A stretch of DNA of 64,000 bases from Mobula hypostoma (Eukaryota): NCBI RefSeq assembly GCF_963921235.1, contig NC_086107.1, forward strand, positions 102,860,001 through 102,924,000, in the 5' to 3' direction. Each line of letters opens with the position of its first letter. The first letter of the stretch is position 1. The notes beneath the pieces were generated by a model. It saw only the letters and a list, made by a program, of their open reading frames with translations, did no database searches and was not told where the DNA came from. Shown piece after piece: positions 3,323 through 60,680 of the stretch. The translations under genes and the position numbers were made by a program.

Positions 3323-4500
3323 TTCACCACTACCTGTCTGTACCCATCTCCATGTACCTGTGTGTACCCATCTCCATGTACCTGTCTGTATTCATCTCTA
3401 TGTACCTGTCTGTATTCATCCCCACCAGCTACCTGTCTGTACCCATCTCCACGTACCTGTCTGTATTCACCTTCATGTATCTGTCTGTATTCATCTTCAT
3501 GTACCTATCTGTACCCATCTCCATGTACCTGTCTGTACCCATCTCCATGTACCTGTGTGTACCCATCTCCATGAACCTGTGTGTACCCATCTCCATGTAC
3601 CTGTTTGTATTCATCTCCATGTACCTGGCCGTATTCATCTCCATGTACCTGTCTGTATTCATCTCCACCAGCTACCTGTCTGTACCCATCTCTCCATGTA
3701 CCTGTCTGTATTCATCTCCATGTACCTGTCTGTACCCATCTCCATGTACCTGTCTGTATTCATCTCCATGTTCCTGTCTGTATTCATCTCCATGTACCTG
3801 TCTGTATTCATCTCCACCAGCTACCTGTCTGTATTCATCTCCATGTACCTGTCTGTATTCATCTCCATGTACTTGTCTGTATTCATCTCCACCAGCTACC
3901 TGTCTGTACCCATCTCCATGTACCTGTCTGTATTCATCTCCATGTACCTATCTGTACCCATCTCCATGTACCTGTCTGTACCCATCTCCATGTACCTGTG
4001 TGTACCCATCTCCATGAACCTGTGTGTACCCATCTCCATGTACCTGTTTGTATTCATCTCCATGTACCTGGCCGTATTCATCTCCATGTACCTGTCTGTA
4101 TTCATCTCCACCAGCTACCTGTCTGTACCCATCTCTCCATGTACCTGTCTGTATTCATCTCCATGTACCTGTCTGTACCCATCTCCATGTACCTGTCTGT
4201 ATTCATCTCCATGTTCCTGTCTGTATTCATCTCCATGTACCTGTCTGTATTCATCTCCATGTACCTGTCTGTATTCATCTCCATGTACTTGTCTGTATTC
4301 ATCTCCACCAGCTACCTGTCTGTACCCATCTCCATGTACCTGTCTGTATTCATCTTCACCAGCTACCTGTCTGTATTCATCTCCATGTACCTGTCTGTAC
4401 CCATCTCCATGTACCTGTCTGTATTCATCTTCACCAGCTACCTGTCTGTACCCATCTCCATGTACCTTCTGTACCCATCTTCACTACCTATCCGTCAGCT
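3323..4500. repeat. 24-bp minisatellite CATCTCCATGTACCTGTCTGTA(TT/CC), about 48 units, with a 443-bp higher-order duplication
   Basis: Direct reading. Rare variants ATGAACC (3571, 4014) and GGCC (3627, 4070) both recur at 443 bp. Confidence 0.95.
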
Positions 4501-5597
4501 CCATATTGTACTGATCTGTACTGATCTCATTTACCAGCACCGGGCATTAGTGAGGAAGGATTTTAGTTCTGAAAACTAAATAATATCGGCGTGGGTCAAA
4601 GCCAGAGACAGTATGGGCAGAAAATATTGCTGATATTTGCATATACCGACCCCAAAAGATGAAATGTTGGGCAGAGTATAACTCAGGACTTCAGAGGTGA
4701 AAGTAAAAAGGTTAATGAAATAACCATGGGAGATTTTAATCTGAGTAGGGACCAGGAGTCTGAGAATATTAATTCAGTGTGTGTTGAAGAGATAGATCTC
4801 TGGATCATTGTGTTGACAAACCAGTGATGCAAGAGACAATTTTAGATGCAGTCTAATGTTATGAGAAATGATTTATAGATGACCTGCAGCTTAGGGAGCA
4901 GGATTTAATATGATAGCATGTTATTATGAAGATTGAAACTGATCTAGTTCAATCCAACATCAAGGCTGTGAGTTTGCATACATCTAGCAAACTATTAAGG
5001 TATGAGATGCGAAGTTGGTAAGTTGGGAAAATTAATTAATAGGCATTATTGATGCATCTCTCCCCGCTGTTTGTATTCTATATGAGATACCTCAAGAAGC
5101 AACATCCATCATTGAAGATACCCACCATCCAAGCCATGTCATCTTCTCACAGCTACCATGGGGCTGGAGGAGCAGAAGTCCCGAAGACCCATAGCACCAG
5201 GTTTAAAACAGCTACTTCCCTTCAGCCGTCCGCTTCCTGAACCGATCAGCACAGCCCCACCACTACCTCAGTCTAGCAACACTGTCCTGAAGAAGGGTCT
5301 CGGCCCAAAACGCCGACTATCTATACATCTCCATAGATGCTGCCCGACCTGCTGAGTTCCTCTGGCTGTTGCTTTGGATTTCCAGCATCTGCAGAATCTC
5401 TTGTGTTTATAATCAGCAGCAGTATTGACCACTTCGATGTCGTTGCCCTACAATAGATTTTGTTTTTGGTTCTAATTGTATCCCTCCTTGTAAAAACACT
5501 AACAACAGGAATTCTGCAGATGCTGGAAATTCAAGTAACACACATCAAAGTTGCTGGTGAACGCAGCAGGCCAGGCAGCATCTGTAGGAAGAGGCGC

Positions 5598-5633
5598 AGT
5601 CGACGTTTCAGGCCGAGACCCTTCGTCAGGACT
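5598..5633 (-). ncRNA. Minimal hammerhead ribozyme (Penelope-like element terminus)
   Basis: Reverse complement reads AGTC CTGACGA AGGgtctcggCCT GAAA C GTC GACT; core intact. Confidence 0.75.
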
Positions 5634-5696
5634 AACTGAAGGAAGAGTGAGTAAGGGATTTTTACTTGCTCACTCTTACTAACTCTTCCTTCAGTT

Positions 5697-5732
5697 AGTC
5701 CTGACGAAGGGTCTCAGCCTGAAACGTCGACT
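5697..5732 (+). ncRNA. Minimal hammerhead ribozyme
   Basis: AGTC CTGACGA AGGgtctcagCCT GAAA C GTC^GACT; predicted cleavage after 5728. Confidence 0.75.
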
Positions 5733-6846
5733 GCACCTCTTCCTACAGATGTTGCCTGGCCTGCTGCGTTCACCAGCAACTTTGATGTGTGTTGCTTGTA
5801 AAAACGCTGTTTTTTTTTGTGAACACTGCTATGTGTCTGTGGCGCTGCAGCAAGTAAGTTTTTCTTTGAACCTGTGAATGCATGTACCCCAGCACATGAC
5901 CATAATCCTGATTTTGACATAAAGGAATTAACACATAATTTAACCTTAGCTGAATTGAGTACATTACAGACTGGGGGATAGATCTTCAAGTAGGAGTTAA
6001 TCTATTAAAAATGTACAAGTGTCCTGCCGAAGGGTTTCGGCCCAAAACATCGACTGTACTTTTTCCCATAGATGCTGCCTGGCCTGCTGAGTTCCTCCAG
6101 CACTTTGTGTGTGTTGTTTGGATTTCCAGCATCTGCAGATTTTTCTCTTGCTTGTTAAACATTGCTCTTTGGGCTAGACGGATGAAGGAACCTGGGAAAA
6201 AACTGGAACAGGGTACTGAAACTGGATAATTAGCCACGGTTATATACATCTCTCCATTACATTTGCTGTTTACATTTAAACTTTTGGATATATTTTTGCC
6301 ATATACATTTACAAGTTCCTCACATACATTCGCCATACTCGTCTCTGCACATAGTTGGCTCCCCTATACATAGAGTTAAGTGCACCAAGTTTCTGGGAGT
6401 TTACATCATGGATGACCTCATCTGGTTCCTCAATATCACTACCCTGAATAAGAAGGGAGAGCAGTGCCTCCACTTCCTGAGGAGATTGAGGAAAGCAGGC
6501 CCCCCTTCCCACCCCCAACTTAACTAAATTTTACAGGAGCACTGTTGAGAGCATCTTGACAAGTTACATCTCCGTCTGGTATGGAAGCAGCCGACCATCA
6601 GACCGGACATCCTTAAAAGGACTGTGAGAACAGCTGAGAAGATCAGAGCGATCTCCCTACCATCCACTGGGGACATTTATCAGGAGTGCTGTATACACAG
6701 AGCCCTTAGTAATATCAAGGATCCCTCCCACACATCCAGAATCCTCTTTGACTTTCTACCATCAGGCAGGAGACTCCAATGCATAAAGACAAGAACGGTC
6801 AGTATGGGAAACTATTTCCACCCTCAGGCCATTAGGCTTCTGAACT

Positions 6847-7483
6847 AGGCTCTGTCCGCCAGAGAAAGCAGGATCTCCCAGTGGCCACACATTTTAATTC
6901 CACATCCCATTCCCATTCTGATATGTCTATCCACGGCCTCCTCTACTGTAAAGATGAAGCCACACTCAGGTTGGAGGAACAACGCCTTATATTCCGTCTG
7001 GGTAGCCTCCAACCTGATGGCATGAACATCGACTTCTCTAACTTCCGCTAATGCCCACCTCCCCCTCGTACCCCATCCGTTATTTATTTATATACACACA
7101 TTCTTTCTCTCTCTCTCCTTTTTCTCCCTCTGTCCCTCTGACTATACCCCTTGCCCATCCTCTGGGCTTCCCCCCTCCCTCTTTGTCTTTCTCCCTGGGC
7201 CTCCCATCCCATGATCCTCTCATATCCCTTTTGCCTATCACCTGTCCAGCTCTTGGCTCCATCCCTCCCCCTCTTGTCTTCTCCTATCATTTTGGATCTC
7301 CCCCTCCCCCTTCCACTTTCAAATCTCTTACTATCTCTTCTTTCAGTTAGTCCTGACGAAGGGTCTCGGCCTGAAACGTCGACTGTACCTCTTCCTAGAG
7401 ATGCTGCCTGGCCTGCTGCGTTCACCAGCAACGTTTACGTGTGTTGTTTGAATTTCCAGCATCTGCAGATCTCCTCGTGTTTG
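6847..7483 (+). mobile_element. 5'-truncated Penelope-like retroelement (GIY-YIG C-terminus, 3' UTR, hammerhead terminus)
   Basis: 6851-7051 translates SVRQRKQDLPVATHFNSTSHSHSDMSIHGLLYCKDEATLRLEEQRLIFRLGSLQPDGMNIDFSNFR*. 13-bp TSD AGGCTTCTGAACT at 6834-6846 and 7484-7496. Confidence 0.85.
7349..7384 (+). ncRNA. Minimal hammerhead ribozyme
   Basis: AGTC CTGACGA AGGgtctcggCCT GAAA C GTC^GACT, about 300 nt downstream of the GIY-YIG ORF stop; predicted cleavage after 7380. Confidence 0.78.
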
Positions 7484-9213
7484 AGGCTTCTGAACTCTCT
7501 GCCGCATCACATTCAAAGTGTCATCGGATAACTTGTACTGTACCCTACAATATTTAATTTATCCACTTTACTTTGTTTATCTATGCACAATTCATTTATA
7601 GATGTAATTCTTACTTTCCTAAGTTGTTATGTGTTACATGTGTGTTATATATGTGTACTACCGTGCTTCACACCTTGGTCCGGAGAAAAATTGTCTCATT
7701 TGATGGTTTACATGTATATAGTTAAGTGACAATAAACTTGACTTGACTTGACATGTACATTTACAAATTCCTTATGCATTTAAATGTGTAAGGTGAGTAC
7801 AGTTGATGCCTGATGGTGAGACAGACTCAAAGGAGCAAAATGTCTACTCCTTCTATTTTCCACATTTCTGTGGGACTGAATTTATTTTGGACTAAGGAAA
7901 TGGAAGAAAAATCAAATAAGTCAGTTGCATCTGTTTTAATGGGGGGGGGGAAGCAGACAGAAAACCTCTCGAAAAAAGCACAGAACAATAGGCGGAGAGC
8001 GAGTGAGGAGTCAGAGGCTTGCGGCTAGGAACATGTCCTTTGGTCTCTCAGTACAAATACACATCTACATTTATCCCGAGCTAATCCCGCTTTACTTTCT
8101 CCACTTTCCCATCAACTCCGCACAAGTTCCATCACTTTCCTACGCACTAGGGAGATTTACTGTTAGCAATTAATCTCCTAACCTCGAGCAACACACAAAC
8201 ACACACACAGTGCTGAAGGAACTCAACAGGCCAGTCAGCATCTATGAGGAGACATTTCAGGCTAAGACCCTTCTTGTGTTTATAATCTACTAACCTGTTG
8301 AGTTTGGGATGTGGAGGAAACTAGAGCAACTGGGGGAAACCCAAGTAGTCACAGGAGGAGGCTTCGTCAATGGTGCCACACAAATAAATTTAACATTACT
8401 ATTCTTTATACTTTATACTTTATTGTCGCCAAACAATTGATACTAGAACGTACAATCATCACAGCGATATTTGATTCTGCGCTTCCCGCTCCCTGGATTA
8501 CAAAAACATAATTTAGGAGAAATTAATGGAGTTAAATAGGGAGAAGTCCTCACTATCAAATGACCTGCATCCTAATGTTTTGCAGTAAATGGCTATGAAG
8601 ATAACAGATGCTCTGGAATTGGAATTGGTTTACTATTGCCACATGTATGAGATACAGTGTAAAGCTTGCCCTGAATATGGTTCATACTGATCAAATCTTT
8701 ACACGGTGCATTGAGGTAGAACAAGGTAAGCAATAACAGAACGCAGAATAAAGTGTAACAGCTTCAGGGAAAGGGCAGTGGGGGCGGACAGTAAGGTGCA
8801 AGACAACAAGGTAGATTGTGAGCTCAAGAGCCCCACCTTGTACAAAGGAACCATCCAGAAGGCTTACACAGTGAGGAAGAAGATGTCCTTGAGCCCAGCT
8901 TCAGGCTTTTGTATCTTCTGCCAGATGGGAGAGGGGAGAAGGGAGAAAGTCTAGGGTATGAGGGATCTCTGATAATGCTGGCTGCTTTGGTTCAAGTTAG
9001 TCTCTTTCAGTTCCATGTTTTTTTTTCACATTCTGTGGTTTGGCCCATTCTTTTTTGTTGCTATTTGGTGTTATTCGTTAGTTTTTTTTTGGTGTGGGGG
9101 GATTGGGGTTTGGAGTTTAATGTTCTTGCCATTTGCACGATTTGTTTTTTTGCATGGGGGAGGGGGTTTGATGTTCTTGTTGCCGTTTGCATGATTTTTT
9201 TGTGTGGGGGGGT

Positions 9214-20725: not shown

Positions 20726-20975
20726 CAATACAGTACATTTCCCCCATATCTCAGCATTGTCCTCTCCAGCCTCTGCTTCCATGTCCAAGTCAGTAATTTT
20801 CACCAATCCCATCCCAAAATCCACTACTTGTGATTGGCTGTTCATCTTTTGCTCTGGGGATACAGGGATCTGATGACACTGGAACCTGGAGGAACGATAT
20901 GCTGGAGGACTCTGACATAGAGGTCCGACCCAAAACATAGACAATTTCTTTCCTCCCACAGATGCCGCTTGACCT

Positions 20976-21337
20976 CCCCTTCATACCCCATCCATTATTC
21001 ATTTATTATATATATATATTCTCTCTCTCCTTTTTCTCTCTCTCCTTTTTCTCTCTCTGTCCCTCTCACTATACTCCTTGCCCATCCTCTGGGATTCCCC
21101 CCTCTCCCTTTTCTTTCTCCCTGGGCCTCCTGTCCCATGATCCTCTCATATCCCTTTTGCCAATCACCTGTCCAGCTCTTGGCTCCATCCCTCCCCCTCG
21201 CCATCCCACTTTCAAATCTCTTACTAACTCTTCCTTCAGTTAGTCCTGACGAAGGTTGTCGGCCCAAAATGTCAACCGTACCTCTTCCTAGAGATGCTGC
21301 CTGGCCTGCTGCGTTCACCAGCAATTTTTATGGGTGT
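20976..21337 (+). mobile_element. Penelope-like 3' fragment nested in an older Penelope-like terminus
   Basis: Highly similar to 7060-7445, with a decayed hammerhead at 21242-21277. TSD TGCCGCTTGACCT (20963-20975) / TGCTGCTTGACCT (21338-21350). Confidence 0.75.
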
Positions 21338-22289
21338 TGCTGCTTGACCTGCTGAGTTCTTCCAGCAAATTGGTTGTTGTACCCTTCCTTCTGTTGCTGT
21401 CCCACAAGCCACTTCCCTGTACTAGACTTTCAGGTCTTCCTAAACTCTCCTTTAGTCACTGTTTTAAGTCCTCTTTGACCCTCTCATTCTTGCTCTAACT
21501 CACCAACAGAAACCACAAACATTTTCCATAGCACATTATAGTTGTTACAAATATCTCAAAATATAATCTACAGCACACTTATTATTACTTCGATATTATT
21601 GGTTTCTTTTGTAATCCTATGTATTTAATTTTAGATATTTAAACACATGATTGTGGGTAGGGGTCCCTGGGCTTCACCAGACTGCTAAAGAGGTCCATGG
21701 CATAAAAAAGGTTAAGAACTCTTGCTCTAACATCACTCCTCTCAATTCCCCTTAGCTTTAAAACTCTGCACCAAATTTTCAGTAGCAGCCTTTGGAATGG
21801 AATCCCCTGTCCTCAGCATCCAACCTTTACGACTGTGATACGTGGACAACCCCAGCCTAGAGCACCGTGCACCTACTCTTTCTCAAGAGCAGAGTACTCA
21901 TGTTCTGTACTCAACAGCCATCTTGAGATTCTGATTGCGTAATTTTAACTCTGCTTCCCACTCTCATGTGTCTTCACCTTCACCATTGCTAAAGGTCAAA
22001 TGTAAATTGAAAAAAATAAACATCTCAGATCCATTAGGTGGTTTACAATCGAATGAATGGTATGAGCATCAAATTCTACTATTACAAGTAAACCATTCCC
22101 CTGGTGCTCTCCCCCAATAAATTAATGTCCATCTAGATTTCTTCCTCCTTTGTTCACTTTTCCCATCACCCCTTTACCCAGTTGCATCTACCCACCCACC
22201 GCCTGTTCCACGCATTACCTACCAATCTGCGTCTCAGCACCTCCCTCATAGTGCTGTTCCTCTTCCCTCATTCCTGCTGCAGGGCCTCA

Positions 22290-25025
22290 ATAACCATATA
22301 ACCATTACAGCACAGAAACAGGCCATTTCGGCCCTTCTAGTCCGTGATGAACTCTTACTCACACCTAGTCCCACTGACCTGCACTCAGCCCATAACCCTC
22401 CATTCATTTCCTGTCCATATATCTATCCAATTTAACTTTAAATGACAACATCGAACCTGCCTCAGCCACTTCTGCTGGAAGCTCGTTCCACACAGCTACC
22501 ACTCTCTGAGTAAAGAAGTTCCCCCTCATGTTACCCCTAAACTTCTGCCCTTTAACTCTCAACTGATGTCCTCTTGTTTGAATCTCCCCTACTCCCAATG
22601 GAAAAAGCCTATCCGCGTCAACTCTATCTATCCCCCTCATAACTTTAAATACCTCTAACAAGTCCCCCCTCAACCTTCTACGTTCCAAAGAATAAAGGCC
22701 CAACTTGTTCAACCTTTCTCTGTAACTTAGGTGATGAAACCCAGGTAACATTCTAGCAAATCTTCTCTGTACTCTCTCAATTTTGTTGACATCTTTCCTA
22801 TAATTCAGTGACCAAAACTGTACACAATACTTCAAACTTGGCCTCACCAATGCCTTGTACAATTTCAACATTACATCCCAACTCCTATACTCAATGCTCT
22901 GATTTATAAAGGTCAGCATACCAAAAGCTTTCTTCACCACCCTATCCACATGAGATTCCACCTTCAGGGAACTATGCACCATTATTCCTAGATCCCTTTG
23001 TTCTACCACATTCTTCGATGCCCTACCATTTACCATGTATGTCCTATTTTGATTAGTCTTACCAAAATGTAGCATCTTGCATTTATCAGCATTAAACTCC
23101 ATCTGCCATCTTTCAGCCCACTCTTCTAACTGGCCTATATCTCTCTGCAAGGTTGAAAACCTACTTCATTATCCACAACTCCACCTATCTTAGTATCATC
23201 TACATACTTACTCATCCAATTTACCACCCCATCATCCAGATCATTAATGTATATGGCAAATAACATTGGACCCCTTACAGATCCCTGAGGCACACCACTA
23301 GTCACCGGCCTCCAATCTGACAGTTATCCACCACTACTCTCTGGAGTCTCCCACCCAGCCACTGCTGAATCCATTTTACTACTTCAATATTAATACTTAA
23401 CGATTGAACCTTCCTAACCAACCTTCCCTGTGGGACCTTGTCAAAGGCCTTACTGAAGTCCATACAGACAATATCCACCACTTTACTCTCGTCAACTTTC
23501 CTAGTAACCTCTTCAAAAAATTCAATAAGATTTGTCAAACATGACCTTCCACGCACAAATCCATATTGACCCTAATCAGACCCTGTCTATCCAGATAATT
23601 ATATATACCATCTCTAAGAATACTTTCCATCAATTTACCCACCACTGACGTCAAACTCACAGGCCGATAATTGCTAGGTTTACTCTTAGAACCCTTTTTA
23701 AACAATGGATCAACATGAGCAATACGCCAATCCTCCGGCACCATCCCCGTTTCTAATGACATTTGAAATATTTCTGTCAGAGCCCCTGCTATTTCCACAC
23801 TAACTTCCCTCAAGGTCCTAAGGAATATCCTGTCAGGACCCGGAGACTTATCCACTTTTATATTCCTTAAAAGCTCCAGTACTTCCTCTTCTTTAATCAT
23901 CATAGTTTCCATAACTTCCCTACCTGTTTCCCTTATCTTACACAATTCAATATCCTTCTCCTTAGTGAATATCGAAGAAAAGAAATTGTTCAGAATTTCC
24001 CCCATCTCTTTTGGCTCCACACATAGCTGTCCACTCTGATTCTCTAAGGGACCAATTTTATCCCTCACTATCCTTTTGCTATTAATATAACAGTAGAAAC
24101 CCTTGGGATTTATTTTCATCTTGCTTGCCAAAGCAACCTCATATCTTCTTTTAGCTTTTCTAATTCCTTTCTAAAGATTCTTTTTACTTTCTTTATATTC
24201 TTTGAGCACCTCATTTACTCCATACTGCCTATATTTATTGTAGATATCTCTCTTTTTCTGAACCAAGTTTCCAATATACCTTGAAAAACCATGGATCTCT
24301 CAAACTTTTAACCTTTCCTTTCAACCTAACAGGAACATAAAGATTCTGTACTCTCAAAATTTCACCTTTAAATGACCTCCATTTCTCTGTTGCATTCTTC
24401 CCATAAAACAAATTCTCCCAATCCACTCCTTCTAAATCCTTTCACATCTCCTCAAAGTTAGCCCTTCTCCAATCAAAAATCTCAACCCTGGGTCCAGACC
24501 TATCCTTCTCCATAATTATATTGAAACTAATAGCATTGTGATCACTGGACCCGAAGTGCTCCCCAACACAAACCTCCGTCACCTGACCTATCTCATTCCC
24601 TAACAGGAGATCTAACCCTGCCCCTTCTCTAGTTGGTACCTCTATGTATTGCTGCAAAAAACTACCCTGCACACATTTTACAAACTCCAAACCACCCAGG
24701 CCTTTTACAGTATGGGCTTCCCAGTCTATGTGTGGAAAATTAAAATCTCCCACAATCACAACCTTGTGCTTACTACAAATATCTGCTATCTCCTTACAAA
24801 TTTGCTCCTCCAATTCTTGCTCCCCATTTGGTGGTCTATAATACACCCCCATAAGAGTTACTACACCTTTCCCATTCCTCAATTCCACCCAAATAGCCTC
24901 CCTAGACGAGCCCTCTAATCTATCCTGCCAGAGCATCGCTGTAATATTTTCTCTGACAAGCAATGCAACACCTTCCCCTCTTGTCCCTCCGATTCTATCA
25001 CACCTGAAGCAATTAAATCCAGGAA
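22290..25025 (-). mobile_element. CR1 LINE, 5'-truncated, ORF2 (APE endonuclease + RT) broken by frameshifts and stops
   Basis: ORF pieces: GVYYRPP/VIVGDFNFP/FGSSDHNAI (24442-25050), KSPGPD/NYRPVSLTSVVGK (23535-24131), SCLTNLIEFFE/DFSKAFDKV (23302-23556), RRRLRGDL/NFFTQRVV (22404-23150). Short TATGGTTA-type tail at about 22290-22305. Confidence 0.93.
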
Positions 25026-28000
25026 TAGAACCAAAAACGTTGACATGCATTTTCTGCCTCCACTGCTGTTGCTCAACCTACTGAGGACTCCTGGCAGGTT
25101 TTTTTAAAAGTAAGATTTATGTTGTAATGTGATTACTTTTATTTCTTTCTGGAGATTCTAGGTGTTGTTTCAATTCAGCAGAATTCTTACATTTTCCCCA
25201 ATTAGTCTGGTTTCTTTTTAGCAAAATGAACCTTTTTCTTTTTATTCAGTACCTTTGGACTTAATAGCAAAGGTGTTCCAGTTGTAAAGTTTTTGTAGCA
25301 CAAAGGAAAATGTACTTAGGAATTTCAACTAATGCCTCATACCTTTTATGTACTTTGTTCCTTCGTCACCAGTGAATAAAAAGGAATTCCACAGTACATA
25401 TCATGGAACGTTGGTCATCTGCTCTGTATCAATTTGCAACTGTATCTGACAGAGCAGTCACATGGAAAGATATGTAGACATTACTGCCTTGGCAACATCA
25501 AGTATTCCATAACTCCATGTTAACTAGATTCGCTGTATGGCTGTATGTAGATTGACCAGGGGTTCCCAACCTTTCTTTACACCATGGACCGGTGCCATTA
25601 ATCAAGGGGGCAGTGGATCCCAGGTTGGAAACCCTCACAGTTAAGAGTAACTCTATTACAGCGCCAGAGACCCGGGTTCAATTTCAACATTGTAAGGAGT
25701 TTGTACATTCTCCCTGTGACCTCCGAGTGCTCTGCTTTCCTCCCACATTCCTAAGCTGGATTGGTGGCATGGACTCATTAGGCTGTTAGGGTCTGTTACA
25801 ATGCTAATTTTAAAAAAACACACTGGAATGAAATATCTTTATTATATGGAGGTTGGCTTTGCAAATTGCAATGTCTCTAAGACTTGAGAAATGGGCAGCT
25901 GTAGTTGAAATTCTGCATAATCAATAGATCACCACCTAAAATAACAGAATTAAAATGAAAGCCTACTTTCCCAACCACCCCCAACCCGGCCTTTAAAGAA
26001 AGATGTGTCGTTTGTATAATGTCCCCACTGCTGCTCAGGCCGATGTTTATTGTTCACTGCCGAATCTAATGATCCAGTGAGGGGTAGGGAACTGATGTGG
26101 GGTCTTGCGTGTGCAAGTTAATTATTGTATTTCCTATGTTACCACAGTAACTGTAGCTCAAAATAAAGGCACTTCATAGTAAAAACACATTGGATGTCCA
26201 GAGGTTGGGAAGCAAACTAAAATGTCAGCCTTCCTATCTTGCCAACTGCAGCCTCATGGGTCTAGAGTGTTAGGCCTGGTATAGGAATGCCAGTGCTCAG
26301 GAACAGAAAAAGTCTACAGGAAGTGGTAGACACAGCTCAGTCCAACACAGCCCCACCCTTGAGTATATTTACATGGAGCACTGGCACTAGAAAACAGCGT
26401 CCATCACAGACCACCCATCTGTCCTCTTTTCACTACTGCCAGTGAGCAGGAGGTACGGAAGCCCAAGGTACCATACCACTAGGTTCAGGAAGTTATTACT
26501 CTCCAGCTGTCAGGGTCCTGAACCAGCATGGATACCTTCACTCACCAGTGCTCTGAACTGATTCTACAACCTGCAGCCTCACTTTCAAGAACTCTTTTCT
26601 ATTTCATATTTATTTTATTTGCACATTGTCTTCTTTGACACATTGGCTGCTTGTTAGTGTTTGTTCATACATAATTTTTCAGAAATTGCCCTGTATTTTT
26701 TTTCTTGGAAATGCCTGCAAGAAATTAAATCTCAAGGTGGTATACACTACATGTACGTACTTTGTTAAAGATACTTTGAGAACCTCAGTCTGGAGTAGCA
26801 TTACCAAGATATCTGCGACAGTGTTTAGCACGTGCTGTGTCTATTCTAGTCAAATGATGAGGTTTTTCCACCACCTCTTATATGATGAGTAACGCACCTG
26901 CAATTAACCTGTCAGTACAAGCTGGAATGTTGAAAGATTATGCCATGCTTTCCCCTCAGGTTGAAGCAATAGGGAGCAAGATGTTAGGATCTAACATGAA
27001 ACCAATCTGCTTATTCAGCCCAGGTTCTATCCAAACCCTCAGTCATTGTGCTTACTGTTTCGGAAATATTACACGAATATTGATGCAAATTTTACCAAGA
27101 TTTTCTGTGATTTAGTCCATTAGGAACCAGGTAGCACCAAAATTGGCCTACTTTCTTCAGCAGTTGTAGCATTCTATTTGGTATTAGCAACCGTTAAGGC
27201 TGCACTTACCATCAGAAAATGGTCTTCCATTGTTACAAGAAGCAGGACTTTAGCCCTACATTTATGCTTGTAAAGCTCCCTGCAAATTGCTAATTCCTGA
27301 AGAATGATTTGCAGTGGAATACTTGTCAACCAAAACAGGGTGAAGTGCAATATTATCAGAGGCACATTTTATAGCCATTTATTAACCCTCTGTATCTTGT
27401 AGGATATGATATGCCTGATAATGAAAGAATCTCTTTGAGATTCATCCTATTTGAATCTTGGTCTCAGGATGTGTAACTACAGCCTATCAAGATTACAGAC
27501 TTGAGGTGTGGCAACTCAAATTAATTAATTAAGCATGTGATACTTTCCATAAGACACAGGAGTAGAATTAAGCCATTTGATCATGGCTGCTATTATCCCC
27601 CTCAACCTCATTCACCTGCATTCTCCTCAATCTGTCATCCACCTCCTCCACAAGGCAGTTAAATCGGTTTATTTGTGAAAGCTGGCAAATCATTTTTGTA
27701 TTTGCTATTTAATTCTTTCCCCATCCACCCTCATGAAGCTAATGCCTCTCTACAAATAGTCCCATGATAAAAATCCCTGTCTCTCATCAAATATCAAATG
27801 AGCTAGTTTCACAGTGAGGATTTCCAATCCCACAAGTTGAAGCCTTATTCACCTTGATTAACTTCAGAACAGCTTGCTATGGAAACACCAATGCCCTAGA
27901 ATGGAAAATCCTACAAAAAAAACAGTAGATACAGCTGTCCATCACAGATAAAGCCCTCCCCATCGAGTACATCTACACAGAGCAGTGTTGCAGAAAAGCA

Positions 28001-35057: not shown

Positions 35058-35972
35058 TTAGTTTGCCAAGACAACTGGCTGAAATGGCTGGTTAGGATAC
35101 TGCATGGTATTCAAGTTGAAGTCAAGTCCTTCCACAAACGGGGCTTTCTCGCCCAGGTTGTTGTTATTGTAGATTGGTGGCACCTCAAAGGCATTAGGGA
35201 ATGGCGCCGGGCCAGATGATGACTGATTTTCATTCCCGAAGTACAAGCTCAGGGAACCGGGGTACACAAACTCCTTGGCATTGGGAGAAAGGGAGGATGG
35301 TGGAATCTGGTTGCTGCTGAGGACTAGCGAATGCATTGATGTAGACAAACCTTTCTGCTTAATCAAGCCATTGGTCGGAGAGCGAGCCATTCTGCGGCCT
35401 CCAGTTTTCATCTTGGTGGACCCAAATTTGGTGGCAGCAAAGGCTGCAGTGGTAAATGTGATTGGCTGAGTAGACCTCGGGATGAAGGTGGGGCTCACTG
35501 AATTTCCAAAGGATGGTGACGGAGAATTAGACAAAGAGTTGCCCTGGTCAGTGATGGGTGTGAAGACCTGGGCCTCTGGGTTAAAGCTGCTCTTTATCTC
35601 CTTGTCCAATTCTGCACTCTCATTGTCGTCCATGTAGAGGACCTTCACAGCCCCTTTCTCACCAATCTGATAGGACACCTCAAACGGATCAATCCAGAGG
35701 CTCAATTCTTGCGGAACATTGGCCCGAATATCTTCTATATCTAAACCACTCCTCCTTGCAGCTTGCTCTATGATGGGGTCCACAGTTTCTCCGATATGGA
35801 CACACCTGTACCCAGATCCTTTCAGGGGCTTTTCTAGGTACCAATGGCCCTCATATTTCTGTTTCAGCAACCGCTCCAGCTCCTCGCCGAAGAGGTCTGC
35901 ACGTCGCCGTGGTAATTTGTTGTACAGATAGGAGATTATGAAATTTAAAGCCACTTTGATCTCCAAATGCAT
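35058..35972 (-). CDS. TOB2: Transducer of ERBB2 2 (BTG/Tob antiproliferative family, CAF1/PABP adaptor), 304 aa, single coding exon
   Basis: Translation [61 protein letters not shown]...[18 protein letters not shown] is a BTG domain (boxes A/B). PAM2 motifs SFNPEAQVF and [11 protein letters not shown] are present. [17 protein letters not shown] and C-terminal FQPVVLAN match TOB2 rather than TOB1. ATG at 35972 has A at -3; the ORF-track extension to 36098 crosses a splice acceptor. Confidence 0.96.
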
Positions 35973-42755: not shown

Positions 42756-43823
42756 CACAAACAAGAGGAAATCTGCAGATGCTGGAAATCCAAGCAACAC
42801 ACGCAAAATGCTGGAGGAACTCAGCAAGCCAAACAACTACTATGGAAAACAGTACAAATGACATTTCGGGACAAGACCCTTCAGCAGGACTGGAGAAAAA
42901 AAATGACTCAGAGTTACAAGGTGGAGGGAAGAATTTCTCTTCTGTTTTGCACACGTCTGCCCTCACCCCACCAGGGACAGGATTTGTCTTGTCCTCACCT
43001 ACCACCCCATCAGCCTCCACGTCCAGTACATAATTTTCCACCTGTCCCTCCCCACTAATCTCCCTCCTGGCACTTATCCTTGTAAGCTGAACAAGTGCTA
43101 CACCTGCCCCTACACCACCTCCCTCACTACCAATCAGGGCCGCAAACAGTCCTTCCAGGTGAGGTGACACTTCACCTGAGAGTCTGTTGGGGTCATCTAC
43201 TCTATCTGGTGCTCCTGATGTGGCATCCTGTGTACTGGTGAGACCTGATGTAGATTGGGAGACCACTTTGTCAAGGACCTATGCACCGTCCGCCAGAAAA
43301 AGTGGATCTCCCAGTGGCCAACCATTTTAGTTCCACTTCCCATTCTGACATGTCAGTCCACGGCCTCCTCTAATGTCGCGATTAGGCCACACTCAGGTTG
43401 GAGGAGTAACACTTTATATTCCATCTTGGTAGCCTGATGGCATGAACATCTATTTCTTGAGCTTCCAGCAATGCCCAACCCCACCTTTACCATTCTCTTT
43501 TCCCTCTCACCTCATCTCCTTACCTGCCCATCACCTCCTTCTGGTGCCCGCCTTTTCTTTCTTCCATAACCTTCTGTCTTCTATCAGATTCCTCCTTCTC
43601 CAGCCCTATATCTCTTTCACCAATCAACTTCCCAGCTCTTTACTTCATCCCACCCCCTCCCAGTTTCACCTTGTGTTTCTTCCTCCCCTCTCCCTACCTT
43701 CTAACTCTGACTCTTCATCGTTTTTTCCTCCAGTCCTGATGAAGGTTCTTGGCCTGAAACGTCGACTGTACTCTTTTCCATAGATGCTGCCTGGCCTGCT
43801 GAGTTCCTCCAGCATTTTGTGTG
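42756..43823 (+). mobile_element. Degenerate Penelope-like element (Neptune-like) with inverted 5' terminal segment
   Basis: About 43065-43440 translates PPGTYPCKLNKCYTCPY...HFT*ESVGVIYSIWCS*CGILCTGET*CRLGDHF, a Cys-rich linker plus decayed VIY/YIGET GIY-YIG. 42756-42930 is an inverted copy of the terminus. Possible decayed TSD TCAAATTAGAT / TCAAACTAGTT. Confidence 0.8.
43732..43767 (+). ncRNA. Minimal hammerhead ribozyme
   Basis: AGTC CTGATGA AGGttcttggCCT GAAA C GTC^GACT. Changes versus other copies fall only at N7 and in loop II. Confidence 0.75.
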
Positions 43824-46800
43824 TCAAACTAGTTGGTTTAGTTTAGCCACATTTTCTTCCAACTGAAGAACAGTACTGGCCCTGTCAGAATTAAGCAGAT
43901 CCAGCACCCTGCTGAGCTCCAATTTACTGTCAAATTTCTCCCTTAGGACAGTGAAGGCTACTCCTTGTGCTTGGGTACAGAAGGTTTCAAGTATCTTTTT
44001 CTGCAATGCCATCCTGTCCCGTTTTCTCTCTCCATGTGTCTGTCAGAAGGTTGACAATAAACTATTCTCATTACTCTGCCAAGCATTTGCAAAAGCTGCA
44101 TGTGGGTGACCCAGATTACATCACCTGCTATTTTCTCTTCCTGTAACAACTTCAGCTTTTACAAAGATAGAAAGTTGATCAGCTGAGAAACTTGGAAGTG
44201 CAAATTCACAGCCCATTAACAAGCAATGCAGAGGTGCAGCTTCAGATTAACTCTTCAATTCTAGTGCAGCATCAGAGGAAATGCTCATGTTTTGCAACAA
44301 GACAAAATCACTGATATAAAAACCGAAAGAAAAATGGGTAATCTTTCACCTCGTGATGATCTATTACATCTTGCTTAATTGCATAAGAATTGAGGCTTAA
44401 AACACACAGATAGAAACACATTGAACATACGACTAAAGGGTACAGAAAGGCCATTGCTGTAAACTGGAATCACTATTTGTAACACTAGTATCCAAATGGT
44501 AGACCAGTAACAAAAGTACTTCACTTGCAGAGTAAAATCTTGTCAATGGCTGCAAGAGTCCAAAATTTTAAAGCCCACCTGCCAACTTCAACAAATTCTC
44601 CCCCACCACTTCCCCAATAAGCCCCAAATTCCTCAAAATTCACTTCATAGCTTTCTGCAGATGCTGTGCTGAAAATGATACACAATTCCTAGAATGTCCC
44701 AGCCTGTACATCACCAGGACATCAACAAGAGTAGTGTGGTCCGGAGAAAAGGCTTTTAGTCCTGGTGACTAAGCGTTTGAGAAAAAAAGGGGGTGGGGAG
44801 AGTAGAAAACAATTCCACTTTCCACACCACTTCTCTCACTAGATAAATGCTGTCCTCATTTTCAGAATCTGATTACAGTACGTCACTCTGACACAGCAAA
44901 TGGACACCTATGCTTACTGAATTACACTAGCTCCTGAAATGGTAAATACTTCAAACTTAAATATTTGCCTTGCTTTTTCAGTGCTTCCAGCTCAATCTCT
45001 AAGATTATTTTCACTAATACAACCCACAAATTTGTGCATCTCCAATTTAGCATCTTACAGCCTGATCCAGCCATCTGGCCTCAGAAAATAGTATTCACCC
45101 ACTAAGCTTCAAGATTTTCTTCAAAGCTTTACTGCTGTGCCCTAGGCCTCTAATCATCAGCTCAAGTATCTCCTTATGCAGTTATATGTCAAATTTTGCT
45201 GTGAAATGCCTTGGGGTATTTTGGCAAATTAAGGAGTTCGGATACGTGGCACGGTGGGGGTAGTTGGGTAGAGATCTAAGAGGCAAGAGATAATTTTATC
45301 AGACTTATGAAACTATGTTCCTCAATAAGAACTTGCATACTTTAAAATCATTTTGTATGACTTCTCCATGGCTCCTCTATTTCATTCTCACTCAGTCTAA
45401 TGCCATTTAACCTGGAGCTGTGCTAGTCTAAACGTATATTACATTTCATCTGGAAAATATACGTACCTACATTCTTACCTCTTTCACAGAAATATAAATT
45501 CTATGAATAGCTTAGGCAGCAATATCTTCAATAATCTGAATGACCACCACCCCCCATGAGCAAACTCAGTACTTAAATTGCCACCAGCCACCATATGTAC
45601 CTTCAACACAAGAATACGCTCCAAAACAGCACAACTAACCAAGTCCCACATACAAACAGGTGACCTCAGCTTCATAAATCCACCAGACCAAAGCAATTTA
45701 TCTCAAGCCATTCAATGACTTGAGCTACTCAGTTGCATGGGGTAGAAAATAACAAAGATTCTTAACTGATCTATTTTAATTGTATTTTTATTTTGAAATT
45801 ATGTAGCCCATTTCCACCTTTCCAGTTTCCCCTCAATAGCCCTCAAGGGAATACTCCTTTAGAACTTACCTTGCTTAATGTATAGAAGTTCACCCATTTC
45901 TTCCAATGTTCAAACAAGCACAGGCCAAACAGCTCAACCTGTCCTAAACAATCCCTTTAACCCCAGAATCAAACAAATGAACAAGTCTTAATTACCCCTA
46001 ATGCCAACAAGGAAATATCTATATGCATGACACAATATGGACTCAGTTGTAATGAAACCTTCCTACTTTTATGAACTACCCTTTACGCCACATTGATCAA
46101 CATTCCATAGAGTTCCACACAATATTCTGCTTTCTTATCTTCCCAGCAGACCGGATAGTGTCAGGTGTTCAGGGTCAGATATGTATCCACACAGCTTTGT
46201 AGGCCAAATCTGCTTCAACTTGTTTTCTCCTTTTATCTTTGCACTGTCAGCAAACTTGATAACAATGGCTTCACCCAAGCCACATCCCACTCATTATAAT
46301 TTAGTCATCTGGAAAAGAACTTGTTTACCCAACATAATTTCTCACAGAATATATTAGCCCCAACATCATGATCCATTAGCCCACCCAATAATCTTGTGAA
46401 ATCCATTCAGGTGCCCATGATTCATCCTCAAAGCTGTAAAGTTGATTCACTTTTCATAAAACCATATCAACACTGCTTGATTGTATGAGGATTTTTAAAA
46501 TATCTTGATACTACTCCCTCAATAATTAATTCATATTCTAAATTCCTTTCTCAGAGAGGCATGACATCTGTCATTTCTAATGTGGGACCTTTTAAGAATG
46601 AAGTTAAGGAAGATCTTGACATTGCATCCCCATTAGTAGCCCTGTTTTCCAAATGCTAGGGTGCATTGCATTGGATCCAGAGAATGTGTCAGCTATTAAT
46701 CTTATTTTAGTTTCTTTGCTTCTTTTCTATAGTAACTTTGGTTTGAATACTTCCCTCTACCTTGCTGTGGATTTTTTTTTACTGAAATGTACCAAATGTG

Positions 46801-54500: not shown

Positions 54501-55459
54501 CCCTCCTCCCTCTCTTGCTCAATATTAAATGTCCCTGAGCCCATCCCCCTCTTTTCACAAATTCCATTAAAACCAAACCGGACCGAAAGGGGCAAAATAC
54601 TCAGGTCGTCTCTCCGTGGCGAATATATTTTTTACTTTCACCAATCGATCACCAAGGTTATTACTATAATATAAAAAGGTACAGTTACTAAGACAGGGGA
54701 AAAAAAGGCTCAACTTAAGAGGTTCCAGCCCAAGGACTTTAACCTTCCGAATCCCCCCAAACCTGATCTTATTCCAGGACTAGCAGCATATCATTTAAAG
54801 AAAAAAACATCCCAGCAATTAGATGCAACATTTACAACCTTCAGCACTACTCCCTTTATTTTAGTAAATAAAACGCACGATCCACGAGAGAGATGAGGGC
54901 TTTTTTTTTAATCCACGATCTGAAAAAAAATCGACATCTCGACTTGGCAGTGAAATTAGTGACTGAACACGTCAACAACCGACTGTCTGCAGGCTTTAAA
55001 AGAAAAAAAAGTACATTATTTCATAAACACCCTCACACACAAAAAAATCGATAGATCTTTATACAGCACGGCCTATTTTCTTTAACTTGAAAGATTAGAT
55101 GCAAACGTACCTCAGAAATCCGAACCCATTTGGTTATTATGGAAATCTATGGATGGAAAATGGAGTTTATGCTGAAGCAGAGAGGGGAAAAACTACAGTT
55201 TAGGCTCGAAATTTCTCCTCAATCGTTGAAAAAAAATACAAAGCCTATCTTTTTTATATAAAACGTAAAGAAAAAAGCCAGAAATGATGCAGGTGATTTA
55301 AAGTGGAGGAGTTGGAAATTGACAATAGAGGAGGGGGGGTTAAAAGAGGGATTAATGGAGGGAGTGAGACTGTGTCCCCACTTGGGCTGAATTCAGGTAT
55401 TATAATATTAGAGACACGGGCTTTCGATAGGCTGACGTATGGAAGTGGAGAAGGCTTAC

Positions 55460-55880
55460 TTGTGGTGCCGGGAGCGGGCTGGCCTCGGGTCGGTCCGGGT
55501 CCGGGTCCGGGTGCAGGTCCGGTTCCGCCGCCGCCTCTCAGCCCGAGCTGCCGCTGCCCAAACTTTAGCCCCAGCTCCCGGCGCACTTATATCACTTCAC
55601 ATCCCCACGGTCAGCTGCCCCGCCGGATCTACTTTCCCAATATAAGGAAAACACACGGCGTGTCGTTTACCACTCAGCCCCTCATTGGACTCCTCTCCCG
55701 TGTCTCGTTATATCGCAAGCGTCGCACCGCTTCGTTTTTTTCCTGCGTTTTCCAAATTTTCTTTGTCAGAATGGTGAGGTTTTTCTCCCGTCTTATTTTT
55801 TTCACGTCGGAAGGAGGCGTACGCAGAACGTCAGGGGCGCGACGCGGCTGCCGTCCTTCTCGATACTAAAAATAAAGCGG
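55460..55880 (-). other. TOB2: Probable non-coding exon 1 of TOB2 (5' boundary uncertain, could be as short as about 55560-55460)
   Basis: CpG-rich segment ending in a strong donor CAA|GTAAGC (intron starts 55459). Mammalian TOB2 has a non-coding first exon plus one coding exon. Implied intron is 36033-55459. Confidence 0.65.
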
Positions 55881-55894
55881 CGTGCTAGCAACTC

Positions 55895-55995
55895 GGCTCT
55901 GATTGGTTGCTGCCTGAGAAATGACTACTTCTGATTGGTAGGATGCATTGACCAATTGGTTACCGCGTAACTGACGTCACAATCACGTCAGCAAG
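55895..55995 (-). promoter_or_regulatory. TOB2: TOB2 proximal promoter cluster: CCAAT boxes and CRE sites at the CpG-island edge
   Basis: ATTGG at 55902-55906 and 55934-55938 (32 bp apart), palindromic CCAATTGG 55952-55959, perfect CRE TGACGTCA 55972-55979, CRE-like TCACGTCA 55983-55990. Confidence 0.75.
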
Positions 55996-56157
55996 AAAGC
56001 CTTGCATTTATATATCACCTTCCACATCCTTGGGACATTCAAAGTAACTTGCATTTACATATCAACAGGAATTCTGCAGATGCTGGAAATTCAAGCAACA
56101 TACATCAAAGTTGCTGGTGAACGCAGCAGGCCAAGCAGCATCTATAGGAAGAGGTAC

Positions 56158-56193
56158 AGTCGACGTTTCAGGCCGAGACCCTTCGTCAGGACT
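56158..56193 (-). ncRNA. Minimal hammerhead ribozyme
   Basis: Reverse complement is identical to the 7349-7384 motif. Confidence 0.75.
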
Positions 56194-56211
56194 AACTGAA
56201 GGAAATTAGTT

Positions 56212-56247
56212 AGTCCTGACGAAGGGTCTCGGCCTGAAACGTCGACT
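56212..56247 (+). ncRNA. Minimal hammerhead ribozyme
   Basis: Identical to the 7349-7384 motif; predicted cleavage after 56243. Confidence 0.75.
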
Positions 56248-57929
56248 GTACCTCTTCATATAGATGCTGCTTGGCCTGCTGCGTTCACCAGCAACTTTGA
56301 TGTATGTTGCTTGCATTTACATATCATGTTTTGCATCTTCACAGTATCGCACACACTCTAATCAGAAACTAGAATAGAAATAAGCTGCCTGGGCCTACTC
56401 TGCCAATCCACATGTGCAGTCAGTTTTCTTTTACTTATTTGGAGATTTATAAGGCATAAGCCCTTCCAAGCCATGCCCCCCAGCAACCCATCGATGTTAA
56501 CCCTAGCCTAATCACAGGACAATTTACAATGACCAATTAAACTACTAACTGGAGCTTCTGTAGGAAACCCACGTGGACACGGGAAGGACATACAAACTTG
56601 CTTACAGAGGACGTCAGAATTGAACTCTGAACTCTGACATCCTGAATTGTAATAGCGGTTGCTAAACACTGCACTACCCTGATCTGTAAACTGCAAACAC
56701 TACTTTTAAGTCATAGCCTCACATTTATTGATACCATTAATATCCAGATATCTATCAAGTTCGGTTCTGAATGAAACCAATAACTGACCCTTCACAACCC
56801 TCAAGGTAGAGGATTCCAAAGGTACATTACTTGAGTGAAGAATTTTTTTCACATGACATTACCACATATTCTGAGGCTGTCTCTTCCTTGTTCTAAATTC
56901 CTTAACCAAGTGAAAGACCTAACTTGTCAAGCCATATAAGAATGTTGTCTATTTGAGAGAAGTCACATCTCATTCTTCTAAATGCTGAAGATTAAGGGGC
57001 CTGGCCAATCTTGCCTTCATGGGAACCATTTTAATGAAACTTTACTGCTCTTAAATAATTCAAAGTACATTTATTATCAAATAATGTGTAAATTATACAA
57101 CCTTGAGATTTGTCTGCTAACAGGCAGCCACAAAGCAAGAAACCCGAGAGAACCCAATTTAAAAAAGACCAACCCCCCAATTTGCAAAGAGAAACAGAAA
57201 AAAACACAAATCATGCAAACAATAAAAACAAGCAAAAGCATTCCGAGCTAAATTGAGACCATAAACCAGGAACAGCTGGAGCTGGCCCATAGCCTCGGTC
57301 TCACTCTGTTTATAGCAAAAAAGGAGATCAGAATTGTTTAACTAAGGGCCTTTGTAATTGCAATTAGACTTCCTGACTCTCATACTCAAATCCTCTTACA
57401 ATGAAGTGCCATCTGTGATTTACCTTCCTCATTTCCTGCTTCACCTGCAAGTCACCCTTTCAGTAAATTGTGTACAAGAATGTCCGGGTTGCTTTGAACA
57501 TCTCCATTTCTCAGCCTTTTGCCATCTAAAAAAAATACCCAGCTTTTAAGTTTTTCTACCAAGTGGGGCATAATTTCAATGTTGTGTTCCACGTGTCATG
57601 CACTCAACTGATGCCTCTTTCCTTTCTTATCATCTGCTCATATTATCTAATTCACTCATAGTTTTATGTCATAGGTTGCATTGATATCCTTTGGCCTCCA
57701 ACTTAGGAATGAACTCTTTCTAGTCTATCAGATGACAATACTCACAATTCCACATCTTCTAACCTTTTCTCGCCAACCTCCTGGGAGGACCATTGTTGAA
57801 AGTCTCCTGAAAATCCAAACACCTCACATGGATGGCCTCTCTCAAAAATCTCTTCAGAGGGAATAGTGGGAGACTTTCAAAGAGATGCTTTCGCGCTGCC
57901 CAACAGAGTATACTCCAGCTAAAGACTAG

Positions 57930-60680
57930 GACAGTGAGGGTAGAGAGTCAGCCTCAGGGGTTTGTATTGGGCCTGCAACCGTTCACGATTTACATGGATG
58001 ATTTGGAAGGAGGCACTGGATGTGGTGCATCTACTGTGGTTTTGCTGAGGATGTGGAGAATCTGCAGAGAGATATAGATGGGTTAAGTGAGTGCACAGAG
58101 GAATAAAGGAAGGTATCAAACGAAAAGCCCATGCATACTATGTCATCAAGAGTAATGGGAAACTGAAAGATTTGAAGACTTTTAAAGGCAACAAAGAACC
58201 ACAAAACAATAAAGAGAGGGAAGATGGATTAATAAAGTAAGCTAGCACAAAATATAAAAATAGATAAGAAAGGTTTTAATAATTGTATGAAGCAGAAGGT
58301 GGTGCCTCGAGTGAACAAAGATCCTTTGGAGGATGATAAGGCAGAATTAATATTGGGCAATATGAAAACAGCCAAGAATTTGAATGATTATTTTCTGTTT
58401 GTCTTCATGGTGAAGGAGATGCCTAATGTGCTGAAGACAGATGTTATGGAAGTGATGGTGTCCTTGATACAACTGCTGTCACTGAAGTGTTAGTACTGAG
58501 CAAAACAGCAGTCCTGATGGAATGCTTCCCAGCGATTTGAAAGTGATGGCAGAAGTTAAAGTTGCCAACATTCTCAGGATTCTGGTCAGGCCCTGGCAGA
58601 TTGGAAGACAATGAAAGTCACATCACGCTTAGAAAAAGGATGCAGGCAAAATGTAGGTAACTACAGGCCAGTTAGCTTAACGTCTGAAGTTGGGAAAGTG
58701 CCTGAAGCGATCATTAAGGAAGAAATAATGAAACATCAGGATGGAAGTCATTCAAACAGGCAGGTGCAGTGTGAATTCAGGAAGAGCAGGTCCTGTTTGC
58801 TAAATTTACGTAGTTCTTTGAAGATGTACTGAGCAGAGTGGATAGAGAGAAACAGGTGGATATTGTATACTTGGATCTTCAGAAAGCGTTTGATAAGGTG
58901 CCACATAAAAGATTTATCCATAAGACTGGGATGCATGGAATTCTGGGTAATGTATTAGCATGGACAGAGAATTGGTTAACTAATAGAAGGCAGAGAGTTG
59001 GGATAAATGTTCCTCCTGTTGGCAATCAGTGGAGAGTGGGATGCCTCAGGGGTTGGTATTGGACCCACAACAATTTACAATATTAATGATTTGGAAGAAT
59101 AGAAACAGAAAACCTACAGCACAATACAAGCTCTTTGGCCCACAATGCTGTGCCGAACGCATACTTACTTTAGAAATTACCTAGGGTTATCCATAGCCCT
59201 CTATTTTTCTGAGCTCCATGTACTTGTCCAGGAGTCTCTTAAAAGAACCTATTGTATCCGCCTCCATCACAGTCACCGGCAGCCGATTCCACGCACTCAC
59301 CACTCTCTGCGTAAAAAACTTACCCCTGACATCTCCTCTGTACCTACTTCCAAGCACCTTAAAACTGTGCCCTCTCGTGTTAGCCATTCCAGCCCTGGGA
59401 AAAAGCCTCTGACTATCCACACGATCAATGCTTCTCATCATCTTATACACCTCTATCAGGTCACCTCTCATCCTCCATTGCTCCAAGGAGAAAAGGCCGA
59501 GTTCACTCAACCTATTCTTGTAGGCATGCTCCCCAGTCCAGGCAACATCCTTGTAAATCTCCTCTGCACCCTTTCTATAGTTTCCACATTCTTCCTGTGG
59601 TGAGGTGACCAGAACTGAGCACAGTACTCCAAGTGGGATCTGACCAGGGTCCTATATAGCAATATAGCTGTAACATTACCAGAGGGGTCTGACCAGGGTC
59701 CTATATAGCTGTAACATTACCATGTATGTGTAGTGTATCTTCTGTAAGTTTGCTCATGAAGCTAAGTTGAATGGAAAAAAAAATTGTGCAGAGGATGAGG
59801 AGAACCTGCAGAGAGATATAGATAGGTTAAGTGAGTGGACAAGGGTCTGGCAGATGAAATACAAAGTTGGTAAATGCAAAGTCATCCACTTTGGAAGGAA
59901 AAATAGAAAGTCAGACTATTATTTAAATTATGAAAGATTGCAGCATGATATTATGCAGAGGGACTTGGGAATGCTAGTACATGAATTGCAAAAGGTTGGT
60001 TTGCACGTACAACAGGCTATCAAAAGGGCCAATGGAATGTTGGCTTTCATTGCTAGAGGGATTAAATTTTAGAGCAGGGAGGTTATGCTGCGACTGTACA
60101 AGATCCTGATAGGGCCACACCTGGAGTACTGTGCGCAGTTCTGATTTCCTTACTTGGGAAAAGATATACTAACTTTGAAGGCAGTGCAGAGGAGGTTCAC
60201 CAGATTGATTCTGGATATGAAGGGGTTAGCCTATGAGGGCAGGGTGAGTCATCTGGGAATATAATCATGGGAATTCAGAATAATAAGAGAGGACCTTACA
60301 GAAATAGATACAATTAACAAAAGGATAGATAAGATGGAGCAGGAAAGTTTATCCGTTGGTAGATAAGACTGGAACTATGGATCATAACCTAAAAATCCGG
60401 GGGGGGCGGTTAGATTTAGGATGGAGGTGAGGAGCTTTTCAGAAAGAGCATCTAATCTGTGGAATTCACTGCCCAGGGGAGCAGTAGAGTCTCCCCCACA
60501 CCCCCCCAAATATAATTAAGATGCAGTTAAATAGATTTTTACATAGCAGAGGAACTAATGGGTGATTGGGGAAAAGGCAGGTAGGTAGAGTTGAGTCCAC
60601 AGTCCATCAGCCAAGATCTTATTAAATGGTGGAGCAGACCAACTCAAGATAGCCGTCTCCTGCTCCTGTTTCTTATGTTC
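57930..60680 (+). mobile_element. Degenerate CR1 LINE(s), interrupted by a younger CR1
   Basis: GNYRPVSLTSEVGK (58611-58832), VDIVYLDLQKAFDKVPH (58838-59086), LQRDIDRLSEW...HFGRKN (59767-60072). Confidence 0.85.
59100..59722 (-). mobile_element. CR1 3' fragment nested in opposite orientation
   Basis: ORF 59187-59510 (MRGDLIEVYKMM..TRGHSFKV..FFTQRVV); local duplication at its 5' junction (about 59640-59722). Confidence 0.88.

Follow-up and report, generated by a model that had tools for sequence, protein, structure and literature searches.

A recent inverted insertion of a Penelope-like element, very probably dead on arrival, upstream of a putative TOB2 first exon

Penelope-like elements (PLEs) frequently leave inverted copies. 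In the portions of the literature consulted here, an inverted 5'-truncated copy with a one-sided tail of 30-40 bp is described as typical of PLEs (Craig et al. 2021, PMC8557442), and the formation of such inverted insertions is called undefined in the consulted text of the same paper. Inverted pseudo-LTRs with a 31-bp tail and target-site duplications of 8-10 bp have also been reported, for which self-priming was proposed (Arkhipova et al. 2013, PMC3846280). The Poseidon element of Anolis carolinensis cuts and extends both target strands in vitro, with two reverse transcription start sites flanking the tail, and the consulted part of that study describes initiation that involves no homology with the cleaved DNA (Frangieh et al. 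2024, PMC11167929). Minimal hammerhead motifs occur as opposite-strand pairs 100-700 bp apart; the consulted text reports no cleavage by single motifs and little by dimers, and this motif type requires a same-sense partner (Cervera and De la Pena 2014, PMC4209133). The zinc-finger-like motif between the reverse transcriptase (RT) and endonuclease (EN) domains marks the Neptune clade in the consulted text of PMC8557442.

An insert of this general appearance is located approximately 490 bp upstream of a putative TOB2 first exon in the window, which denotes the whole 64-kb stretch of DNA analyzed. It very probably represents a recent, dead-on-arrival insertion of an endonuclease-positive (EN+) PLE. 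Contigs of four public runs (X1 of organism A, X5 of organism B, X9 of organism C, and the probable RNA run X15) were aligned to positions 54800-57300.

Architecture of the insert and its parent element

The insert and its target-site duplication consisted of the following features:

56048..56064, unstranded: left copy of the 17-bp target-site duplication; exact repeat, single copy at the empty site in organisms B and C
56065..56091, minus: one-sided element tail of 27 nt (27-33 nt by assignment of the junction overlap), shared with solo copies, where it forms the 3' end, and with the 5.5-kb fold-back, where the left arm alone carries it
56092..56204, minus (element sense): left arm, a 5'-truncated Penelope-like pseudo-LTR end, by alignment to the other copies in the window
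56158..56193, minus: left minimal type I hammerhead motif, by pattern match, folding, and copy alignment
56205..56207, unstranded: 3-nt filler at the head-to-head junction, unlike the native continuation of either arm
56208..56313, plus: right arm, a 5'-truncated pseudo-LTR end, tail-less; its final 4 nt (CTTG) are common to the target duplication
56212..56247, plus: right minimal type I hammerhead motif, with no difference from its left counterpart, by pattern match, folding, and copy alignment
56310..56326, unstranded: right copy of the target-site duplication; exact repeat, supported by the empty-site contigs

Repeat searches confirmed the palindrome claimed by an earlier sequence-only reading. 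The fold-back arms (56092-56197 and 56208-56313) were 106 nt long each with a single mismatch (56147/56258), the spacer was 10 nt long (GAAGGAAATT), and the fold-back was flanked by an exact 17-nt direct repeat (56048-56064 and 56310-56326). The right arm ended in 4 nt (CTTG) that also open this repeat. The extra tail of 27-33 nt was present on the left arm, while the right arm was without a tail. The native element diverged from the insert sequence past 56204, and no ORF could be found in the insert itself. What had been described as a special mini-element is rather the standard inverted-copy-plus-tail stub of a PLE. A third copy of the target 17-mer, matching at 16/17 positions, could be observed in the host sequence at 56001-56017, 47 bp upstream of the repeat, suggesting that the site already held a short direct repeat, one unit of which received the element.

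Three further copies in the window were informative about the family:

5487..5808, unstranded: second fold-back of the same family, with 124-nt arms (4-5 differences), a 19-nt spacer, and a left-arm-only tail
6834..7496, plus: non-inverted 5'-truncated copy of the same element (element portion 6842-7483), with an ORF C-terminus, tail, and 13-bp duplication
42762..43824, unstranded: older inverted insertion, consisting of an inverted pseudo-LTR with tail, approximately 800 bp of decayed sequence (linker, GIY-YIG, and 3' region), and a pseudo-LTR lacking the tail

Judging from sequence homology, the parent of the arms is an EN+ Penelope-like retroelement with RT, Cys linker, and GIY-YIG endonuclease. 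The copy at 6834-7496 contained the last 67 codons of the ORF (ORF end 6848-7051) upstream of the arm-homologous sequence; this ORF end was 94% identical to protein P0001, and its best relatives were proteins from myliobatiform rays. P0001 revealed a YIDD RT motif, a CxxxxCxxC linker, and a GIY-YIG match with an E-value of 4.6e-4, which is below the Pfam gathering score. GIY-YIG matches, all likewise below the gathering score, were obtained in 4/6 relatives, and the Pfam search of two ORF fragments in the window returned no GIY-YIG domain, the link coming only through the longer relatives. The linker and endonuclease could also be aligned with the decayed body at 43 kb (E 6e-40). The CxxxxCxxC motif preceded GIY-YIG in P0001, P0002, P0004, P0007, and the 43-kb copy, and also occurs in Nematis; by its Cys linker, the parent element appears to be Neptune-like. 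No full-length element was seen in the 64-kb window.

Between 56,597 and 89,307 contigs could be aligned per DNA run, with the depth lying mostly on repeats. Depth was near a million on the arms compared to 5-12 on the unique flank, values that do not represent copy number. Two more high-copy repeats were located distal to the insert (56480-56650 and 57058-57250) with very high depth in all four runs. Four ray proteins annotated as host genes (P0003, P0006, P0008, and P0009) contained the endonuclease end of the element, and these are probably exonised repeats or annotation errors. The 6834-7496 copy sits within a decayed LINE-like ORF. The minus-strand segments at 22407-25077 and 59190-59651 are presumably LINE-like endonuclease and reverse transcriptase fragments, judging from their motifs, and a long minisatellite array with spurious open frames on both strands occupies 3200-4570.

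Hammerhead motifs and the TOB2 context

The two diverging hammerheads proposed on the arms could be recovered as pattern matches. The hammerhead-like pattern matched the window at eight positions, two of which were on the arms in diverging orientation, compared to none in 100 shuffles. The motif was built of stem I AGUC/GACU, CUGACGA, an unpaired A, a 4-bp stem II, and GAAACGUC without a stem III loop; it was placed in the pseudo-LTR, and its core was intact in both arms. At the Rfam gathering score, the window gave no matches, and the right arm region folded with a z-score of -1.0, which is not significant. Across 11 copies, 86% of cells in the hammerhead helices were paired compared to 11-56% when the helices were slid along the alignment, a value not above that of shuffles. 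Covariation analysis of 8 pairs in the same 11 copies, a small and closely related sample, revealed no two-sided changes.

Stems I and II had a pairing probability of approximately 0.5 in the predicted fold of a lone arm. In the predicted fold of the fold-back RNA, the pairing probability of the hammerhead helices was 0 on either strand because each motif pairs with its own antisense. The predicted energy was approximately -226 kcal/mol for the fold-back RNA and -142 for single-strand DNA. Based on this folding model, any transcript through both arms would form a 106-bp duplex in which the ribozymes are buried as passengers. The proposal of a hairpin RNA containing a ribozyme is thereby disfavoured in its active sense, since the helices had no pairing probability in the fold-back RNA and the motif type is dimer-dependent.

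The gene context of the insert was composed of three features:

35061..35972, minus: TOB2-like coding exon of 304 aa, with BTG and PAM2 domains and an acceptor-like sequence 60 nt upstream of the ATG
55460..55579, minus: putative non-coding TOB2 first exon, from a contig of the probable RNA run (55459-55579), with donor AA/GTAAG at 55460/55459
55902..55990, unstranded: host CCAAT/CRE cluster at the edge of a CpG island, by motif scan

Assignment of the minus-strand ORF at 35972-35061 to TOB2 was upheld by its BTG and PAM2 domains and by its 90% cluster, in which 12/15 members were named Tob2 or Tob2-like. We infer that the exon at 55460-55579 is spliced to this coding exon. A short GGTCCG-type tandem run could be observed at 55480-55520 within the putative first exon. 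The host cluster comprised a CRE (TGACGTCA) at 55972, CACGTCA at 55984-55990, and CCAAT/ATTGG boxes at 55902, 55934, and 55952, and the CpG observed/expected ratio over 55400-56000 was 1.14. Contigs ran unbroken through the cluster in organisms A and B and were present as pieces in organism C. The distance of approximately 75 bp given earlier holds between the end of the cluster at 55990 and the first inserted base at 56065.

This proximity raises the possibility of a regulatory insert, in which a 106-bp hairpin, made by antisense transcription running upstream from the CpG-island promoter of TOB2, is edited or diced, or a DNA cruciform or methylation acts at the site, changing TOB2 expression in the lineage. 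Along with the position 75 bp from the CRE/CCAAT cluster at the CpG-island edge, the high predicted stability of the hairpin is in line with such a role, as is the lineage-restricted presence of the insert, which also duplicated ATTTACAT in the target copy, a sequence we take to be octamer-like. However, with a family of such extreme abundance and two short fold-backs within the 64 kb, proximity to a promoter needs no selection; the insert is absent from both relatives and thus not conserved, and the ribozyme is predicted to be unable to fold in the hairpin. Contigs of X15 were absent over 55640-55975, and contigs show presence only, giving no evidence on antisense transcription. A regulatory role is considered improbable, and the insertion most likely has little or no effect on fitness, neutrality being assumed here. 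The locus itself matters little beyond being a clean and recent case of a published insertion pattern, and only a proven influence of the insert on TOB2 expression would raise its importance.

Related units, the empty site, and the likeness of the arms

Three inverted units were present in the 64-kb window, namely the two short fold-backs and the older 42.7-kb unit. The fold-back at 5487-5808 was enclosed by a 14-bp duplication (13/14) which also begins with CTTG, and its right arm ended at the same element position as the right arm at 56 kb. The unit at 42762-43824 showed only a weak candidate duplication (9/11). For the solo copies at 5.3 kb, 6 kb, and 11 kb, exact target duplications were not found, the best candidates being 4-6 nt long. 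The arms of the 5487-5808 unit, which is of the same subfamily, have two different variants in common that none of the remaining copies carries, and a short segment in the centre of this unit looks like a back-copy of the left arm. A tail-less copy at 20967-21350 apparently lies within an older family member; its duplication, which spans at least 9 bp, again begins near GCTTG.

A fold-back mini-element or MITE with shared structure and centre was considered as a candidate, and the two short units differed from each other. Such a non-autonomous MITE- or SINE-like element would move as a palindromic unit, and the compact form, the target duplication at the bounds, and the two similar units in the window are what it would produce. 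The units nevertheless differed in their centres (10-nt versus 19-nt spacer) and in their arms (106 versus 124 nt), and other contig joints occurred at varied positions. Moreover, arm-to-arm differences were 1 and 4 within the two short units compared to 6-7 between units, so that each unit looks newly made at insertion; this reading is very unlikely. The smaller within-unit distance fits a single RNA, or two RNAs of a subfamily active at that time. Among the 15 joints listed, with 1130 beyond the listing, further ones that skip from the left arm to where the right arm begins were found in contigs of all four runs, as expected from other inverted junctions. An exact-pattern scan of metagenome contigs returned 0 loci.

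The empty site predicted from the sequence, with one repeat copy, was found in both of the related organisms compared (2/2, one contig each). In organism B (X5 record 17), positions 54801-56047 and then 56310-56523 were aligned on consecutive record letters (3894/3895), and in organism C (X9 record 25), the same join of 56047 to 56310 occurred at record letters 133/134. Both contigs contained one copy of the 17-mer at the site. Over the 1247 bp of left flank, 10 letters and 6 gaps set organism B apart from the window; this divergence together with the empty site indicates that the insertion is recent or still polymorphic. One duplication enclosing both arms, together with the empty site in the relatives, confirmed one young insertion event with target-site duplication, which was also the single young event originally proposed. 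The insert can thus be used as a presence/absence marker.

In organism A, X1 record 3 covered 55279-56088 with 0 differences, running through the left repeat into the element. X1 matched every unique flank exactly and may be the source sample, in which case it speaks against an assembly error and not about other individuals. The centre and the right junction were not seen among the organism A contig pieces listed, which is compatible with an assembly or chimeric-read artefact, as is the statement in the consulted text of PMC8557442 that palindromes are error-prone in assemblies. A fold-back chimera would, however, mirror the unique flank as well, while the mirror here is confined between the 17-mer copies, which are single in the relatives; the asymmetry also matches the published pattern, and the left junction is present in X1. 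An artefact is about as improbable as a mobile palindromic unit.

The sequence-only reading had derived both arms from one template on account of private variants. T56101 and A56134 were present on both arms, and within the window only these arms carried these letters; that part of the observation stands, while the letters are not private genome-wide. The consensus letter held 79%/70% of the summed contig depth at the two sites in organism A, 97%/87% in organism B, and 97%/98% in organism C. The letters of the window accounted for at most 21% and at most 30% of the depth in organism A compared to 2-13% in the relatives, these shares being upper bounds from summed contig depth with X5 counted in part. 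T56101 and A56134 are probably, on this sequence comparison, the letters of a subfamily expanded in the lineage of organism A. The argument for one template from private variants is accordingly weakened, as the letters look subfamily-wide, the circumstance which the earlier reading had itself named as contrary to its claim. A second insertion landing independently in or beside the first, or a later gene conversion evening the arms, would agree with shared letters that are probably subfamily-wide, where likeness alone is no proof of one event, and with the 21-kb copy that seems to lie inside an older copy of the family, but a single duplication holds both arms, a second one is missing, and the 5.5-kb unit has the same layout, leaving this the least credible explanation of all.

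Formation and comparison with known systems

The single PLE insertion with target-site duplication may have formed as follows. The GIY-YIG endonuclease of the element would have nicked both target strands 11-17 nt apart, and the top-strand end would have primed cDNA at the tail end, giving rise to the left arm. The other target end may have been joined at a tail-proximal start site through the 4-nt CTTG overlap, giving rise to the right arm. Synthesis of both arms would have halted just past the hammerhead, and the centre would have been sealed by the 3-nt filler.

The CTTG overlap between target and element could be observed in 2/2 young fold-backs (chance of about 0.017 each and 3e-4 for both), which suggests base-pairing at the second end. 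The older 42.7-kb inverted unit had an overlap of 1 nt only, and the 4-nt overlap was thus present in 2/3 units. The main alternative is snap-back of the first cDNA, which is favoured by a native 7-bp inverted repeat (21223-21229 and 21238-21244) located at the fold-back junction. In the native cDNA stretch, the fold of lowest energy was another weak hairpin (-4.7 kcal/mol) rather than this 7-bp one, and snap-back through the 7-bp repeat predicts an 8-nt centre compared to the 10 nt observed. Priming from both target ends is slightly favoured over snap-back, which keeps a substantial though smaller share of the probability.

It is further conceivable, though doubtful, that the inverted copy is a programmed product, in which CTTG is captured at a fixed tail-proximal site and a stem-loop upstream of the hammerhead sets the point where the cDNAs meet. 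If true, this would represent twin priming at a fixed site, unlike the homology-free initiation of Poseidon in vitro. No literature on twin priming in inverted Penelope-like insertions was found by titles and the beginnings of abstracts; most subscription papers were outside this scope, and the idea is not claimed to be unpublished. The exact empty site makes both junctions readable base by base and provides a data point on Penelope-like integration. Given the abundance of the family and the empty sites of its young copies, genome-wide junctions could be used to test how inverted PLE insertions form.

In LINE-1 twin priming, both target ends prime cDNA, and the result is an inversion inside one duplication with microhomology at the second primer. 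The insert at 56 kb likewise carries its inversion within one target duplication. The LINE-1 pieces, however, are derived from different parts of the RNA, whereas both pieces here cover the same stretch and yield a palindrome.

Poseidon resembles the present case in that its tail lies between two preferred 3' ends, and the cutting and extending of both strands, as given in the consulted part of that study, would yield a fold-back product (PMC11167929). Poseidon belongs to its own clade and is described there as initiating without homology, in contrast to the 4-nt overlap found here at the tail-less end in 2/2 young fold-backs. The hammerhead motifs share with the minimal type I hammerheads of metazoan PLEs the CUGANGA/GAAA core, the unpaired base 5' of stem II, the 4-bp stem I, and the palindromic ACGU replacing stem III, as far as the consulted texts describe them (PMC4209133; review PMC6765202). 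Stem II was 4 bp long here compared to 7-8 bp in the Schistosoma families, and the motifs are so close that each pairs with its own antisense, unlike the minimal hammerhead pairs in the consulted text (PMC4209133).

The closest likeness is to the inverted insertions of EN+ PLEs, with which, in the consulted descriptions, the insert shares head-to-head pseudo-LTR ends, a tail of approximately 30 nt on one arm, an enclosing duplication, and a parent ORF with RT followed by a C-terminal GIY-YIG. It differs from the insertions described there in that truncation has left about 105-140 nt of either copy and no ORF, and in its duplication of 17 bp compared to the 8-10 bp given in the consulted part of PMC3846280. 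The insert is of a known kind, the shortest form of the Penelope-like inverted insertion.
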